Shown here: one piece after another, positions 41,742 through 51,246 of the stretch
Numbering within the stretch: the stretch's first letter is position 1
Layout: every line of letters starts with the position of its first letter
Source: a virus
Taxonomy: Duplodnaviria; Caudoviricetes
Length of the DNA stretch: 64,000 bases
Reading direction: 5' to 3' (one strand)
IMG/VR virus record: IMGVR_UViG_3300027608_000010
The notes under the pieces: model-generated
Told to the model about the DNA's origin: nothing
What the model saw: only the letters and a program-made list of their open reading frames with translations
Databases searched by the model: none
Made by a program: the position numbers and the translations under genes

Positions 41742-43040
41742 TCAACGATGCTTCATTATCCTACGCATGGTAGCTAAGTCATCATCACCTTCTTGTACTG
41801 GTTCTTCGCCTGTTGCAGGTGCTGCCGATGCTGCCGCCGGTGCTGCTGTAGGTGCTGTTGTAGGTGCTGTTGTAGGTGCTGCCGGTGGCTGAGATAACGT
41901 TCCAGTTGGCGCAGCCTGAGGTTTCATTGTAGCACCTACAGGTACGTTATTCATCGGAACCTTAAAAAGTTGTCCAAGTGAATTGCCATTGGCATCTAGT
42001 GGTACAGCATGATCACCTTGTTGCTGATAATTGGTGTATTTTGGTTTTACTATTGCATCTTTGGGTAGGTAATCTTTATATGTTTTAAATAAACCTTGTC
42101 TAACACCATTTGGGCTAACAGGAATAGCAGTGTCACCATCTTGTTCCCAATAGTCTATTGGTCCTATACCATTTTCATCGTCATCAACTTCATCTAATTC
42201 TTGTGTTCCGTAAGCAAGTCTACGCATTTCTTCTAATTCATAATCACCTTCTGCGAGTCCAGGTTGACCTGCATATGCATTTCCTTTACCAAAAGCTACG
42301 GATGCTTTATAAGCAGGGGCACTTGCAGTATCATTTGCTACGTCAGGCGCCGCCGCGTATGCACTTCCTTTACCAAAAGCTACGGATGCTTTATTAGGGT
42401 CACTTGCAGGACTTGCAGTAGGTGTACTAACAGGTGCTGTTGCAGTTGGAGTCTGCGCCGCCGCCGGCTGAGGAATGTTAACTGCTGTTGGGCTGTTTGG
42501 TACATTTGTAAATGCCGACACACCAGGTAGTCTGTTGGGTTGTGGCGCAACAGTGTTTCTTACATTAGTTTGAGTTTGAGCTAGTGCGGGTGCATTTGAT
42601 GCCATTGGAGGCAATTGCTTGCTCTGTATATTAGTAGGTTCGTTTGGCAACGGAACCGGTAAACTTCCGGGTTTGACATTATCGTAATCGCTAAATTTTT
42701 TACCTGAAGAATCTTTACCTAAATCAACAGGTTTGAAAATGTGGTTAGTAAATCGATTCCATACACCTTTGGCGGTGTCTAAATTATTCTGGCCATCAGT
42801 TTCACGTGCAACTGCTTGCTGTTGAGCTACAGCATCGCCCGGATATGTCTTGCCTCTGTTGCCAGGTTGATTGGACCATTCAATTTCGTTGTCGGATCTA
42901 GTTCGTAGTTTTCCACCTCCGGTATTCCATGTTTGTCCAGGAGTACCACTGCCTACTTCTCCGCGGTCTTCACCAAGAGGAACAACTGCTGTCAGTTTGT
43001 CAAGTATTGCTATATATTCTTTTACGTATTGTGAGTTCAT
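41742..43040 (-). CDS. Low-complexity Pro/Ala/Thr-rich protein, probable head-internal/cargo protein
   Basis: AAGGA RBS and late promoter favour ATG at 43040 (MNSQYVKEY). Internal duplications (KASVAFGKG.AYA twice; GD.A.P...NG twice) and 'EEMRRLAYG' / 'ATMRRIMK' motifs. Confidence 0.6.
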   Translation of the reverse strand: MNSQYVKEYIAILDKLTAVVPLGEDRGEVGSGTPGQTWNTGGGKLRTRSDNEIEWSNQPGNRGKTYPGDAVAQQQAVARETDGQNNLDTAKGVWNRFTNHIFKPVDLGKDSSGKKFSDYDNVKPGSLPVPLPNEPTNIQSKQLPPMASNAPALAQTQTNVRNTVAPQPNRLPGVSAFTNVPNSPTAVNIPQPAAAQTPTATAPVSTPTASPASDPNKASVAFGKGSAYAAAPDVANDTASAPAYKASVAFGKGNAYAGQPGLAEGDYELEEMRRLAYGTQELDEVDDDENGIGPIDYWEQDGDTAIPVSPNGVRQGLFKTYKDYLPKDAIVKPKYTNYQQQGDHAVPLDANGNSLGQLFKVPMNNVPVGATMKPQAAPTGTLSQPPAAPTTAPTTAPTAAPAAASAAPATGEEPVQEGDDDLATMRRIMKHR

Positions 43041-43062
43041 GCTGATCCTTGGAAGTATAAAG

Positions 43063-43077
43063 TATTTATGATAAATA
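43063..43077. promoter_or_regulatory. Back-to-back divergent late promoters (TATTTAT-G-ATAAATA)
   Basis: Perfect 7-1-7 palindrome between divergent genes. Confidence 0.7.
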
Positions 43078-43128
43078 CAATATTGCTTTGACTTAGTGAG
43101 CGATAAATATATTATAACGGAAAGACAC

Positions 43129-43962
43129 ATGGCTACCACACACGTGCTAGAATTAATCGATATAGGTGATTTACCCAATGACGGGACGGGCGATCCATTA
43201 CGAGTTGCCTTTCAAAAGATTAACACAAATTTTGAAAGTATCCCATTATTAAATCAGGGCGGTGCAAATCAATCAATACAGTTCAATAATGATGGACTTA
43301 GCGGTGGTACAGCAAATCTACTATATGACACACCAAATAATGCAATAAAGTTAAATACCGATATTATACCAATAACTACAAATGTAGTTGACATAGGTAG
43401 TAATACCAAAGTAATCTCTAATATTTGGCTAAACAAATTGGATTCATTTCACTTAGGAAATGTAACTATCGGTGAAATTAACAATATTCTTAACATTTTT
43501 AAAACAGGTGACAAGACTTCACAGTCAGATTTACAAGTTGGAAATATTTATGCAACAGGTGAGATCATTGCCATTGGTAATGTTACTTCTACCGGTGATA
43601 TTACTATTAACGGTGGTATTAATCTTTCTAATATATCAATTAATACAGCAAATGTAACCACAACTAGTAACACTGCTAATCAAATTGTATATCAATTGCC
43701 GCAAGTAAATTTTACAACATTGAGATTACAAATTACATCTCATAGACCTGACACCAATGATAGTCAAAGTGTATCCATGACTGTTAATAAAAGAACTGAT
43801 GGAATTCAAGCTAAACACACGGTGTTTGGTACTGTTTTTAACGGTACTCCTCTAACAAGATATAATGCAGATATTTCATTTGGTAATGTGCGAATAATGG
43901 TATCACCAATACCAAATGTAGAAATAATACATTTGGTATCTTTCCTTAACGATGTAGCATAA
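43129..43962 (+). CDS. Baseplate wedge / fibre-connector protein (T4 gp9/gp10-like N-terminus)
   Basis: 'IDIGDLPNDGTGDPLRVAFQKINTNF'. ATG 43129 is in frame with ORF-track start 43096. Confidence 0.7.
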   Translation: MATTHVLELIDIGDLPNDGTGDPLRVAFQKINTNFESIPLLNQGGANQSIQFNNDGLSGGTANLLYDTPNNAIKLNTDIIPITTNVVDIGSNTKVISNIWLNKLDSFHLGNVTIGEINNILNIFKTGDKTSQSDLQVGNIYATGEIIAIGNVTSTGDITINGGINLSNISINTANVTTTSNTANQIVYQLPQVNFTTLRLQITSHRPDTNDSQSVSMTVNKRTDGIQAKHTVFGTVFNGTPLTRYNADISFGNVRIMVSPIPNVEIIHLVSFLNDVA

Positions 43963-43963
43963 G

Positions 43964-44350
43964 ATGAGAGCAAATGAATTTATGGCTGAATCAAGCCAAA
44001 AGAAAGTTTCTAAAAGACAATCTCAATCAACCAAGGGACTGAATACATACGGTGATAGTGAACATGTTAGTGGTGATTATACTGCATATCGTTTAGGCAT
44101 GGCTGTAGCAGGTGCAAACGGAAAAGATCCACTTCAAATGCCAGCAAAAAGTTGGGTAGGTAAGAACAAGTCAACTCATCCTTATACACAGCAAGAACAA
44201 GATATGTTAAAACAAGCATACAAAGCTGTTGGTGCAGAGTATAAAGATTTAAATCACGGTGACATGAGAAGTAAAGAACTTGATGACACACATAAAACTA
44301 GCCCAATCTTAGGATTTGCAGGCTACGGCGCAAAATCTAAGAAAAAATAA
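43964..44350 (+). CDS. Basic protein, probable head-internal protein
   Basis: N-terminus 'MRANEFMAES' followed by a Lys-rich body; late cluster. Confidence 0.45.
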   Translation: MRANEFMAESSQKKVSKRQSQSTKGLNTYGDSEHVSGDYTAYRLGMAVAGANGKDPLQMPAKSWVGKNKSTHPYTQQEQDMLKQAYKAVGAEYKDLNHGDMRSKELDDTHKTSPILGFAGYGAKSKKK

Positions 44351-48019: not shown

Positions 48020-51000
48020 ATGTCCAAAGAACAAGAATCCCTTAAAACCGAAATTTATGGCTTACTTAAGAGCCGCGGGTTAAATCCCGTAAGTAAAGAT
48101 AGCTCAGGAGATACTGTACCTATCCCCACAGAAGCAGAAGTCTTTGAATTTATGTTCAGCAAAGACGGAAAAGACTATGGTAAAGTTTGGGTAACACTTG
48201 ATGGTTTACAACAGTTAATAGTTTATTTTGGTAAAGATGTAGCTGACAGTCCAAAGAACGGATCAGAAGATAGTAATTCATGGTCACAATTACATAGAGC
48301 ATTAAGCAGATTCGCAACAGGAAGACAACTTAGTTTTGAACTGAGTGATCAATCTAATTTAGAGGCAGATATGGCAAAAAGAGAACACACAAAAAGAGAA
48401 GAACAAGTCAATGAGGGTTATTATCCAATTGGCAAAAATGCTAGTGGTAACAACAATGTTCCATCAGTTACAATGCGTATTCAACATACTCGTCCGATTG
48501 AGGAAGGTGAGCAACGTTTTCGTAACATTGCACGAATCTTTGTTGAAAATCAAGATGGTGAAAGAATTCTATTACCAACGACAAAGCCAGGACTTGCACG
48601 TACATATGTAAGACATATTGCTGAAGGTGGTAAACCAAATGATGAACGTTGGAATCACTTAGGTAGTTTGTGTGAAGAATATCAAAAGATGGCAGGATTT
48701 GTTCGTGCCACTCGCAATGGACAGTTTAATGAATCAGCACAAAGTCTAGTTAATGAAGGTATTAATCATTATCAAAAACTACGTGAGACCTTAGGTAAAT
48801 TACAAGGTAAGCGTGGATACAATGAATACTTTGAAAGCTATACACCTGCATTAATGGAAGATGAAGAACAAGTTGACTTGAGCGAAATGTTTATGAGTTC
48901 AAGTTTAGATCCTCGCATTGAAAGTGTAATGCCAATATTAAGCAAACTTAGTAAGAATATTACTGAAACTAAAAAAGATATGGCAGAGACTATTGCTTTA
49001 GAAGAATGGGCTGATAGTTTAATGGATAGAACTTCTAATACAAATGAGGCACAATCTGCTAGTGTTCGTATGCAGAAAGCATTGCAACGTGAAAAAGAAA
49101 AACGTGAATATAGTCAACAATATGCCGAGAAGAATTTCCCAATAGGTAAGAACCCAGAACCAATCAAAGAGCCAAGCAAAGAAGTTAAAGAGGGCGACCA
49201 ACGTAAGTTAGATATTGTCAAACGTATGCACGGTATTCTAAGTAAAAATAAAGAACAAGGCATGGCCGAAGGCATAAATCCAAATGAGTTGCTTGGTTCT
49301 GTCTATGATTCAAAAAATAGATATTTAGGCACTTGGAACGGACAACGTTTAGTAATTGATCCTAGTGTCTGGAAGAAATGGAAAGATGAGAATGGTCAAG
49401 ACTGGGCCAGCGGTATGGTAGGGATGGCCAAAGATAGGATAGCATCCGGTGTATGGACAGTACAGCAACCAGAAGGTGTGGCAGAAGAAAGCAAATATTC
49501 TAACTTATCTAACCGCGGAGTAAATCGTGGAATAAATCGTGCCGCTGATGATTTTAACAGAATGCTGGACCTTGACCAAGCAGAATCACCACATTATAAA
49601 ACACAACATCAACAAGATACAAAGCAAAGACTAAAAACAAAACCCATGGCAGGTCCCAAAGGTATGTTACCAGAGCAGGGTGTGGCGGAAGGCCAGTTAG
49701 ACGAGATTGGTGATACCCCAGCCGGTCAAGCAGCCTTACAAAGGTATGGAAACAAGGCTCACGATCAAGTAGCCGCACATTGGAAACAAGTTCATAATAA
49801 GAGTCATTTGCCAACAGACACAAAGATGGCAAAGCGTAATTCAGGTACTGTTGCGGCAGACAATAGAATACACGGTTTCGGTATTGCTAAAAATCAACAA
49901 GATAAAGTCACGGATCGTTTTAAATATCGTGATGCTGTTGGTACAACTCATGTATATCAAAAAAACGATCCATTAGAACAAGGTGTGGGCGAAGGTATTG
50001 TACCAAAACCCTATATGCCTCCTGGACTAGCAAGCGCCACAACCCCTCCATCAGACAATACTTCTAGAGGATGGAAAGGCCATGAGTGGGATCCAGAACA
50101 AGATAATAATGTTGAACATTTGACTTTTCAAACTAGAATGCAAACAACAGAAAAACCAGGTATGAAACCCACTACTACTTATGATACGCAAAATACTTCA
50201 AGTAAAACCGGAATTACTTCAACCCATGAGGTTGATGTAGATGAAGGTCTATCAAGACTAAGAGAACTTGCAGGCGTGCAAGGTATGGCCGAAGCCGATC
50301 GTCCTGGATTGCCACCCAAACTCAATCCTCACGGAATGTCTCAAGCCCAGATTGATGATAGAATGACATCAGTTGGTTTTATTCCAGGAACACGTGACCA
50401 TGCTACAGCGGTGCAACTGTACAGGGCTGCAAACCCGAACACCGCTAGACCAGTGTCGAAACCACTTCCCCGCAGTGATATTCAAGGTACTGATGTTGGC
50501 CCGTTACCACTATCACCTTTAGGAAGAGGTCAAGATAATCCTCATTCTCCAGTAACAAATGTAGATGTATCTGGCAATTCACAAGGTACTGATGTTGGCC
50601 CGTTACCACTATCACCTTTAGGAAGAGGTCAAGATAATCCTTATTCTCCAGTAACAAATGTAGATGTATCTGGCAATTCACAACGTCCAGTTAGAGTTGA
50701 TGTCCGTGGATATGGACCTGAGCCTGATGAATTCGGTCGCCAGCACAACGGTAGCCATGAATCTGACATTGAGATGGAAGAAGGTGTGGCGGAAGCCGAC
50801 GATTTTGGTATAGGTCCTGGGGGTCCTCGTCAACCAGCTGGGCCAATTGGTACTGGTCCAGAAAGCATCCCCAACACAGGCGCTCCAGATGTTAAAAACT
50901 ATAAAGCTCCATTGACCGACAAGTATGGTTGGACTCCCGGATCAAAGGCAGGTGGATGGGACGCTGCTGGGCAACAAAAATACATAGATCGTACTGCCCC

Positions 51001-51160
51001 GGGTGTTATCAACAACATCAAAGACAAATTGGGTTATGACATGCCCGATCCTGACCATGGCCCTAGACCAGATGAAACACAACGACTGGCTAAACTCTAT
51101 CCTAAGTCAACAAACGAAAATGCCGAACTATCTAGAATCAAAAAACTTTCTGGAATGTAA
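48020..51160 (+). CDS. 1046-aa modular protein: globular N-terminal part plus C-terminal modules delimited by (E/Q)G(V/M)AE(G/A); probable protease-processed head protein
   Basis: Six (E/Q)-G-(V/M)-(A/G)-E junctions, C-terminal 'NENAELSRIKKLSGM', late promoter, position next to the terminase. Confidence 0.65.
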   Translation: MSKEQESLKTEIYGLLKSRGLNPVSKDSSGDTVPIPTEAEVFEFMFSKDGKDYGKVWVTLDGLQQLIVYFGKDVADSPKNGSEDSNSWSQLHRALSRFATGRQLSFELSDQSNLEADMAKREHTKREEQVNEGYYPIGKNASGNNNVPSVTMRIQHTRPIEEGEQRFRNIARIFVENQDGERILLPTTKPGLARTYVRHIAEGGKPNDERWNHLGSLCEEYQKMAGFVRATRNGQFNESAQSLVNEGINHYQKLRETLGKLQGKRGYNEYFESYTPALMEDEEQVDLSEMFMSSSLDPRIESVMPILSKLSKNITETKKDMAETIALEEWADSLMDRTSNTNEAQSASVRMQKALQREKEKREYSQQYAEKNFPIGKNPEPIKEPSKEVKEGDQRKLDIVKRMHGILSKNKEQGMAEGINPNELLGSVYDSKNRYLGTWNGQRLVIDPSVWKKWKDENGQDWASGMVGMAKDRIASGVWTVQQPEGVAEESKYSNLSNRGVNRGINRAADDFNRMLDLDQAESPHYKTQHQQDTKQRLKTKPMAGPKGMLPEQGVAEGQLDEIGDTPAGQAALQRYGNKAHDQVAAHWKQVHNKSHLPTDTKMAKRNSGTVAADNRIHGFGIAKNQQDKVTDRFKYRDAVGTTHVYQKNDPLEQGVGEGIVPKPYMPPGLASATTPPSDNTSRGWKGHEWDPEQDNNVEHLTFQTRMQTTEKPGMKPTTTYDTQNTSSKTGITSTHEVDVDEGLSRLRELAGVQGMAEADRPGLPPKLNPHGMSQAQIDDRMTSVGFIPGTRDHATAVQLYRAANPNTARPVSKPLPRSDIQGTDVGPLPLSPLGRGQDNPHSPVTNVDVSGNSQGTDVGPLPLSPLGRGQDNPYSPVTNVDVSGNSQRPVRVDVRGYGPEPDEFGRQHNGSHESDIEMEEGVAEADDFGIGPGGPRQPAGPIGTGPESIPNTGAPDVKNYKAPLTDKYGWTPGSKAGGWDAAGQQKYIDRTAPGVINNIKDKLGYDMPDPDHGPRPDETQRLAKLYPKSTNENAELSRIKKLSGM
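50483..50683 (+). repeat. 99-bp in-frame tandem duplication (33 aa, 2 copies, 1 mismatch)
   Basis: QGTDVGPLPLSPLGRGQDNP(H/Y)SPVTNVDVSGNS starts at 50483 and again at 50582. Confidence 0.95.
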
Positions 51161-51170
51161 AAAGGGTAAA

Positions 51171-51197
51171 TTAAACCGCACTTTTTTGTGCGGTTTA
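51171..51197. terminator. Strong hairpin (probable terminator) after the modular gene
   Basis: TAAACCGCAC-TTTTT(T)-GTGCGGTTTA. Confidence 0.55.
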
Positions 51198-51207
51198 CCA
51201 CATCTGG

Positions 51208-51246
51208 CATAAATACTATTGACATTAGAGAAAAGTGTGCTAAACT
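51208..51246 (+). promoter_or_regulatory. Tandem late (ATAAATA) and sigma70-like promoters for gp32
   Basis: CATAAATA at 51208; TTGACA(51219)-16 nt-TAAACT(51241). Confidence 0.6.

Follow-up and report, generated by a model that had tools for sequence, protein, structure and literature searches.

A gene of an uncultured giant lake phage that may encode a carrier polyprotein of small modules exchanged at a DNA-conserved linker

The open reading frame (ORF) at positions 48020-51160 (+ strand) of a 64,000-nucleotide stretch (the window) of IMG/VR record IMGVR_UViG_3300027608_000010, a virus of the Caudoviricetes (Duplodnaviria), encodes a protein of 1046 amino acids in which six in-frame copies of a 17-20-nt repeat, encoding (E/Q)(Q/E)G(V/M)(A/G)E, separate six unrelated modules. 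The DNA of these junctions is conserved beyond the requirement of the encoded peptide, and breakpoints of module change among relatives coincide with them. The protein is probably a virion-associated carrier polyprotein, the modules of which would be cut apart by the prohead protease and swapped at the DNA-conserved linker.

Its layout would be that of a carrier, with an N-terminal domain of 340 residues, six small independent modules and a C-terminal helix tail, connected by the linker (E/Q)QG(V/M)AE|G. The conserved N-terminal domain (residues 1-340, 48020-49039), a homologue of a virion structural protein of phage PA5oct, is followed by a variable spacer (49040-49219), which is replaced by unrelated sequence in the related locus L001 and in metagenome contigs, and by a conserved island (KRMHGILSKNKEQGMAE|G, 49220-49273) with the first junction, J1 (core 49253-49273), at its end. 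Module M1 (residues 418-489, 49271-49486) ends in J2 (49472-49489); M2 (residues 490-557, 49487-49690), which is basic and the most widespread of the modules, ends in J3 (49673-49693); M3 (residues 558-658, 49691-49993), of a family with the signature QLDEIGDTPAG...NR.HGFG, ends in J4 (49976-49996), a G-V-G-E variant; M4 (residues 659-758, 49994-50293) ends in J5 (50279-50296); M5 (residues 759-925, 50294-50794) ends in J6 (50780-50797); and M6 (residues 926-1046, 50795-51157) contains the conserved C-terminal amphipathic tail LSRIKKLSGM (51128-51157). All of these features are on the + strand. The six junctions lie where an earlier note on this DNA, made from its letters alone, had placed them, all in the frame of the ORF, and the modules that it had called mutually dissimilar, with lengths of 72, 68, 101, 100, 167 and 121 residues (a range of 68-167), have no similarity to one another in BLAST comparisons.

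With one mismatch or less, the DNA pattern proposed in that note for the junction matches six times in the 64 kb, as compared with 0.05 matches expected, and none of 100 shuffled sequences reaches six. Independently, a repeat finder returned a six-copy family of 17-nt direct repeats with spacings of 216, 204, 303, 300 and 501, all multiples of 3, and six of the eight occurrences of G[VMIL][AG]E in the six-frame translation of the window are within the polyprotein. The 221 sites with distinct contexts in 162 related proteins have V, M, L or I at P3, A, S or G at P2 and Gly at P1' in 57% of cases, Gly at P4 and Glu at P1 being fixed by the search pattern. A junction consensus repeated between units is the layout of a protease-processed polyprotein, at the level of sequence only. 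An internal translation start at the junction was considered and rejected, since the Shine-Dalgarno (SD)-like AAGGTG is not followed by a start codon at any fixed spacing, and a 2A-like skip was likewise rejected, no NPGP being present in the sequence.

The conservation of the junction at the DNA level is most evident in its codons. Val is encoded by GTG at all four window junctions that contain it, and the Ala codons are GCC, GCA, GCG, GCC and GCG, against a window background of 11% for GTG, 8% for GCG and 12.5% for GCC, with GTT and GTA together at 79% and GCA and GCT at 80%; the codon counts of the earlier note (GTG for four of four Val, GCC or GCG for four of five Ala, and a genome dominated by GTA/GTT and GCA/GCT) were reproduced. 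The bias is stronger in a larger sample of 36 G[VM]AE junctions with distinct contexts, taken from 81 related loci. Among these, Val is GTG in 22 of 31 cases (GTA in 9, GTT and GTC in none; GTG background 8.7%) and Ala is GCG in 27 of 36 (GCA in 7, GCC in 2, GCT in none; GCG background 7.6%), with binomial p values of 5e-17 and 3e-23, respectively, which overstate certainty because the junctions are phylogenetically non-independent. No such bias is present in the controls: at conserved Val and Ala positions within the N-terminal domain of these genes, GTG accounts for 3% and GCG for 0%, and V-A-E without a preceding Gly in long ORFs of the same loci has GTG in 7 of 108 cases and GCG in 7 of 108. 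The scaffold site L-V-A-E|G of relatives is coded GTT GCA or GTT GCT, and GCT is also used in a leader ending F-M-A-E|S. The conserved DNA comprises about 20 nt, GAR CAA GGT GTG GCG GAA GGC, extending from about -6 to +14 nt around the Gly codon, and variant junction codons (GTA, GCA) are single transitions from the canonical ones. A 13-mer of this DNA, with up to one mismatch, is found in 38 copies in 785 kb of related loci, all of them in frame within the family gene and none elsewhere. In P0076, a different gene, five of eight junctions are exactly GGT GTG GCG GAA GGC.

Comparison with L001 indicates where modules have been exchanged. The N-terminal domain of L001 is 96.6% identical in nucleotide sequence to that of the window, and the homology ends at 49032, reappears in an island of 50 nt that has J1 at its end, is missing across M1-M3, resumes at 49979 (J4), ends at 50785 (J6), is absent across M6 and resumes at 51187. 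Five different arrays are present among relatives with N-terminal domains 94-97% identical to that of the window. M2 (49486-49691, from J2 to J3) is 91-92% identical at the nucleotide level in two other loci, L059 and L007, with N-terminal domains that are only 71-74% identical; because M2 is so much closer than the backbones, its transfer postdates their divergence. Contigs of three independent lake metagenomes contain an assembly branch at 49260 (J1) that leads into the L001-type module, and further metagenome branches are found at 49672 (J3), 49991 (J4) and 50785 (J6), one contig having 266 other letters in place of M6. At 49273 a branch joins J1 straight to the first 15 nt of M3, with M1 and M2 missing. 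Overall, five of the six junctions are starting or end points of homology blocks, and metagenome contigs branch at four of the six.

The same pattern extends to more distant proteins. An exhaustive search with residues 418-1046 against 1.84 billion representative proteins returned 97 proteins, in which single modules occupy varying positions and the alignments end at module borders; M2 is present in about 40 of the 97, with a junction on both sides and different neighbours. When the ends of high-scoring segment pairs (HSPs) with at least 85% identity were examined in 162 proteins, 31% were within 6 residues of a strict junction versus 4% expected, and 60% were near any [VMLI][AGST]E site versus 14% expected; this filtered analysis replaced a looser count that was dominated by noise in the HSP ends of the N-terminal domain. 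Three points qualify this evidence: about 40% of high-identity homology ends are near no [VMLI][AGST]E site, so that exchange is enriched at junctions and not confined to them; J5 is without a clean breakpoint; and the join of J1 to M3 depends on one contig and 15 loose letters. The crossover of P0002, a recombinant of the window and L001 types, had been a candidate for placement at J5 and was discarded, since it lies within a stretch that is identical in both parents and is uninformative. The prediction that orthologues would differ by gain, loss and replacement of modules was borne out, with breakpoints that coincide with junctions in L001, in the lake contigs and among the HSP ends. The junction can be upheld as a recombination site insofar as breakpoints of module change coincide with it, but not as the sole one, in view of the homology ends located elsewhere. 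Fixed module content, genome-like junction codons and off-motif breakpoints, the three outcomes that the earlier note had set against its own proposal, were each tested for, and none of them was the result obtained.

The modules also occur in genes of other kinds. The segment 49249-49693 (J1-M1-M2-J3) is shared, with 96% nucleotide identity, by a gene of 374 codons in locus L088, the product of which has the N terminus MKITEFITE|AANP and which has different neighbours. The N-terminal domain is present in only 8 of the 97 representative proteins; many others have leaders of the type of the T4 capsid-targeting sequence (CTS; M-K/R/N-I/L-x-E/D/Q-I/F/L-...-E) and tail-like helices at their ends. 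The CTS-led gene of L088 (211-1335) has a precomputed Pfam match to DUF6321, which the window polyprotein does not match, and adjoins a gene with a weak match to DUF6267. Within the window itself, the ORF at 43964-44350 (+) encodes a basic protein of 128 residues that starts MRANEFMAE|SSQKK, a leader of the T4 capsid-targeting type; its final M-A-E recurs in J1 and J5, but Ala is encoded in the leader by the common codon GCT. The window ORF at 41742-43178 (-), of 478 codons and without a PHROG match, encodes QPGLAE|GDYELEEMRRLAYG around 42260, a junction-like site with non-canonical codons that is followed by a tail-like helix.

In phage T4, the prohead protease gp21 cuts after Glu at L/I-X-E sites, chops the scaffold and removes a CTS of about 10 residues from the internal proteins, and Alt is trimmed at both ends, the C terminus included; Asp at the position of CTS cleavage prevents processing (PMC9026906); the internal proteins of T-even phages are highly diverse, the CTS alone being conserved (PMC3012670). 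Peptidase_S77, the family of T4 gp21, was found in three of four long related contigs (E ~1e-29), adjoining genes for a scaffold and a gp23-type capsid protein. In the capsid protein of these relatives, the sites I-L-E34|N and L-A-E43|S are found shortly ahead of the position that corresponds in the alignment to residue 15 of mature T4 gp23*, and the tetrapeptide V-A-E|G is present in their scaffold also. It is plausible that the junction V/M-A-E|G, which conforms loosely to the gp21 rule, is a gp21-type cleavage site, cut after Glu. Directly beside the major capsid gene of two relatives there are ORFs with an HNH-type motif (L085 602-1357(-) and L086 2626-3402(+)).

It should be recognized that several observations count against processing and packaging of the polyprotein. 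The protease, capsid and scaffold genes were seen in relatives only, no protease being found in the window; the polyprotein has no CTS-type N terminus (about 10 residues ending in hydrophobic-x-Glu), since it begins MSKEQESLKTEIYG and runs on into the conserved domain of 340 residues; the linker is present in no cultured phage of the collection searched (50,697 phage records); and cleavage at G-V-A-E and packaging are putative in this and every other phage that carries the linker. In an alternative reading, the junction is an uncleaved flexible joint that functions in spacing and recombination only, within a polyvalent virion or ejected protein that remains intact. Delivery without processing is frequent among polyvalent phage proteins (PMC5512222), the residue at P3 of the junction is mostly Val or Met and departs from the T4 rule of Leu or Ile (PMC9026906), and the modules look poorly structured, the model of M3 having a predicted local distance difference test score (pLDDT) of 58. 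However, the combination of Glu at P1, a small residue at P2 and a hydrophobic residue at P3 is the pattern of a gp21-type site, the scaffold of relatives also contains V-A-E|G, and a CTS-like leader in the window terminates in M-A-E|S. Also, a cut-type x-x-E|G is found ahead of the conserved C-terminal tail throughout the family, and the same modules are found behind T4-type leaders, which gp21 removes in T4. An uncleaved joint is regarded as unlikely, although it is the rival that fares best.

Under the carrier polyprotein model, a gp21-type prohead protease would cut after the linker Glu inside the prohead, and one gene would load several small proteins into the head. Exchange could proceed through ordinary recombination or annealing at the short GC-rich homology of the junctions by the general machinery (UvsX, UvsY, gp32), without need of a site-specific recombinase. 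Recombinants at junctions would always be in frame and would keep a cut site on both sides, so that modules would be portable cassettes; selection would retain only the in-frame, site-preserving products, and modules would spread together with canonical junction DNA, by which the rare codons would be retained. A more tentative suggestion, for which we claim no more than a minority share of the probability, is that the linker is kept because it makes modules exchangeable, lake jumbo phages sharing a pool of capsid cargo through a standard in-frame connector. A recombinant would then be loaded by whichever carrier receives the module, be it one with the N-terminal domain, a CTS leader or a C-terminal tail; modules with canonical junction DNA would spread preferentially, so that rare codons would persist, and the system would represent a protein-level counterpart of the integron in which an integrase is not needed.

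It might be argued instead that the rare codons are kept for a reason of RNA or translation, such as a pause between modules or the SD-like AAGGTG, and that breakpoints at junctions reflect selection against recombinants in which modules are broken. It is true that GTG and GCG are used least often for Val and Ala in this DNA, that AAGG and GGTG are both part of the GC-rich motif, and that purifying selection on hybrids must add to the breakpoint pattern. This account nevertheless appears improbable, because only GTG and GCG are used and other rare codons hardly at all (GTC in none and GCC in 2 of 36), because Gly and Glu are encoded by their most frequent codons (GGT and GAA), which indicates a fixed sequence as opposed to a cluster of rare codons, because start codons do not recur at any constant distance past the junction, and because recent moves of modules between diverged backbones (91-96% versus 71-74% nucleotide identity) need physical exchange at or near the junction. 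A dedicated site-specific system, that is a true in-frame integron in which a recombinase, nickase or homing-type endonuclease recognizes the 15-20-nt junction, would account for the extreme identity of the DNA core across unrelated contexts and could draw on the HNH and GIY-YIG genes that are abundant in these phages and on the analogy with mini-circles formed between PeSL (small promoter plus stem-loop) motifs in T4-type phages (PMC2839356), but it is very improbable, given that there is no integrase-type match among the approximately 30 window ORFs scanned with PHROGs (nucleases and HNH being present), that the junctions have no inverted repeat or hairpin, the sole inverted repeat in 49200-51200 being unrelated to them, that the 13-mer occurs, in each of its 38 copies, within the family gene and in its frame, that the variant codons are one transition away, as expected from slow decay of a copied sequence, and that many breakpoints are off the junction. 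The description of the locus as an integron-like array thus remains apt as an analogy, for variable cassettes at a repeated site, but it is not supported in a mechanistic sense, with no integrase among the ORFs scanned, no attC-like structure at the junctions and a 13-mer restricted to the reading frame.

The polyprotein would combine two known kinds of system, T4-type processed head cargo and motif-mediated modular shuffling. Its likeness to T4 IPI, IPII, IPIII and Alt (PMC9026906, PMC3012670) lies in the T4-type phage with a gp21-family protease in relatives, in a cut motif composed of a hydrophobic residue, a small residue and Glu, in hypervariable, small and partly basic cargo in which only a short targeting and processing motif is conserved, in the presence of the same modules behind T4-like leaders, and in the C-terminal trimming of Alt. 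However, the T4 internal proteins have one N-terminal leader per gene, whereas the present ORF strings many cargo units together, with a conserved domain of 340 residues and a C-terminal tail in place of the leader; unlike theirs, the linker here is fixed at the DNA level and doubles as an exchange point, and its cleavage and the packaging of its modules are presumed. In the gp38 proteins of T4-type phages, genetic exchanges occur at conserved glycine-rich motifs (PMC3157838), and PeSL cassettes of these phages undergo exchanges at their motifs, with excision of mini-circles (PMC2839356), which offer a model for cassette movement without an integrase. These systems (PMC3157838, PMC2839356, PMC4122927) resemble the present one in that short conserved sequences flank hypervariable segments and exchanges take place within or near them. 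PeSLs are intergenic promoter-terminator units, whereas the present motif is in frame between modules, and the gp38 motifs are the structural core of one folded domain with fixed synteny, whereas module number and order vary here; the present motif is, in addition, a candidate site for a protease. The polyvalent proteins described by Iyer et al. (2017, PMC5512222) are likewise long multi-module phage proteins, for which packaging and delivery along with the DNA are predicted, and they are sometimes processed. Pfam searches, with a library that may lack some LPDs, detected no known polyvalent domain (MPTase, ART, methylase-helicase, Pfam LPDs), and in contrast with polyvalent proteins the modules are much smaller and the prohead protease, as opposed to an embedded peptidase, would process them at a standard linker. 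QGVAEG or GVAEG had no occurrence in the literature searched, the nearest paper in concept being that on polyvalent proteins (PMC5512222).

Integron cassettes resemble the modules in being unrelated units, bounded by a repeated short site, with content that varies among close relatives, but no integrase was found among the ORFs scanned here, nor any attC-type folded site, and the units are in frame in one ORF and one protein. In the polymorphic toxins Rhs/YD and CdiA, a short conserved peptide (DPxGL and VENN, respectively) bounds variable C-terminal modules that are displaced by recombination, and the Rhs motif is a site of proteolytic release as well. The likeness is in the use of one motif for boundary and release; Rhs and CdiA, however, are secreted bacterial toxins with a single variable tip plus orphan tips, whereas the present genes are phage virion genes with serial arrays of up to eight junctions, in which a separate protease would cut. 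Features specific to this locus are the N-terminal carrier domain that replaces the leader, the C-terminal tail of a kind also found on the scaffold, the transfer of M1-M2 between gene types and the branch points in populations.

Should the modules indeed be separated and enclosed in the head, a single gene would supply the host, along with the DNA, with an assortment of small proteins that can change, and these would act before phage gene expression, at the stage when host defences are disarmed by the internal proteins of T4. Rapid renewal of cargo in uncultured jumbo phages would be explained by a standard connector with conserved DNA, and the connector, of about 15 nt, would also serve as a simple search key for thousands of unknown candidate early-acting phage proteins in metagenomes. 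It also suggests an engineering rule by which foreign proteins might be loaded in series into T4-like capsids. The description of the modules as effector peptides in the earlier note found no backing, as no module matches a known family in Pfam, nor M3 in the Atlas look-up.

The N-terminal domain is encoded in 80 IMG/VR loci at 48-97% identity, matches a PHROG of virion structural proteins and shares 23% identity with PA5oct EST35_0206, which carries an annotation as structural protein from electrospray ionization tandem mass spectrometry (ESI-MS/MS). Megablast of the polyprotein gene against the 50,697 phage records returned no match, and tblastn of the polyprotein against phage records returned only homologues of the PA5oct group, for the N-terminal domain alone. 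An AlphaFold2 (AF2) model of the domain has a pLDDT of 77.5; comparison with solved structures gave nothing convincing (the best values, a Foldseek E of 0.03 and a VIA Z of 6.4, being for sub-domains), and comparison with BFVD returned only uncharacterised phage proteins. For M3, a model from 22 homologues has a pLDDT of 58.5, too weak for a structure search, and the Atlas look-up gave nothing usable. Pfam searches with the polyprotein (E up to 0.1) gave no match, and those with nine long relatives gave sub-threshold noise only.

The C-terminal tail, with the pattern L..[IL][KR][KRE]L[SA]G[ILMV] or ...DLDAI[KL]R[LI][LI][GR]K, is present on nearly every family member, in forms that include ...DLDAIKRLLGK, ...LDAILRIIRK and ...LSRIKKLSG(M/L), and is in most cases immediately preceded by a cut-type x-x-E|G. 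The gp22-like scaffold of two relatives ends in the same kind of tail, NVIDIKRLAGL (L085 2695-3795(-); L086 216-1316(+)). The tail may be a prohead-targeting signal that is removed by the protease, and the helix common to polyprotein and scaffold hints at a second, C-terminal capsid-targeting signal. Prediction of a complex between the C-terminal 50 residues of a family member and the capsid protein of the same relative gave a score of 0.00 in a run without controls, which is uninformative either way. At the end of M4, before J5, there is a tail-like LSRLRELAGV (50249-50278), as if M4 had formerly been terminal.

Two modules have further features of their own. M5 contains a tandem repeat of 99 nt x 2 (50483-50683) that is frame-perfect, with copies of 33 residues each that are 99% identical, and its repeat number varies in nature, as metagenome contigs skip 129 nt (50566 to 50696) and the copy structure of L001 differs. 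The M3 family opens with (G)QLDE|IGDTPAG, providing a further hydrophobic-x-Glu site five residues past the junction cut, possibly for a double cut.

The gene for the large terminase ends 20 nt upstream of the polyprotein ORF, and genes for a gp32-type single-stranded DNA-binding protein (SSB), UvsX, UvsY and a helicase are located downstream of it (PHROG scans). UvsX starts 1.46 kb downstream, with UvsY next, in agreement with the distance of about 1.5 kb given in the earlier note. The G+C content of the window is 36%, and the public runs that contain its sequence are lake and freshwater metagenomes. Contigs of the RNA run X7 cover parts of the polyprotein gene, where DNA carry-over is possible and expression is hence not proven. 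Just past the polyprotein stop codon the sequence contains a hairpin (51173-51196, + strand) with a 9-bp stem and a T6 loop, and ahead of the SSB gene there is a sigma-70-like promoter, TTGACA-16-TAAACT with a TG extension (51219-51246, + strand). The hairpin and promoter together (51173-51246) form a unit that recalls the PeSL cassettes of T4-type phages.

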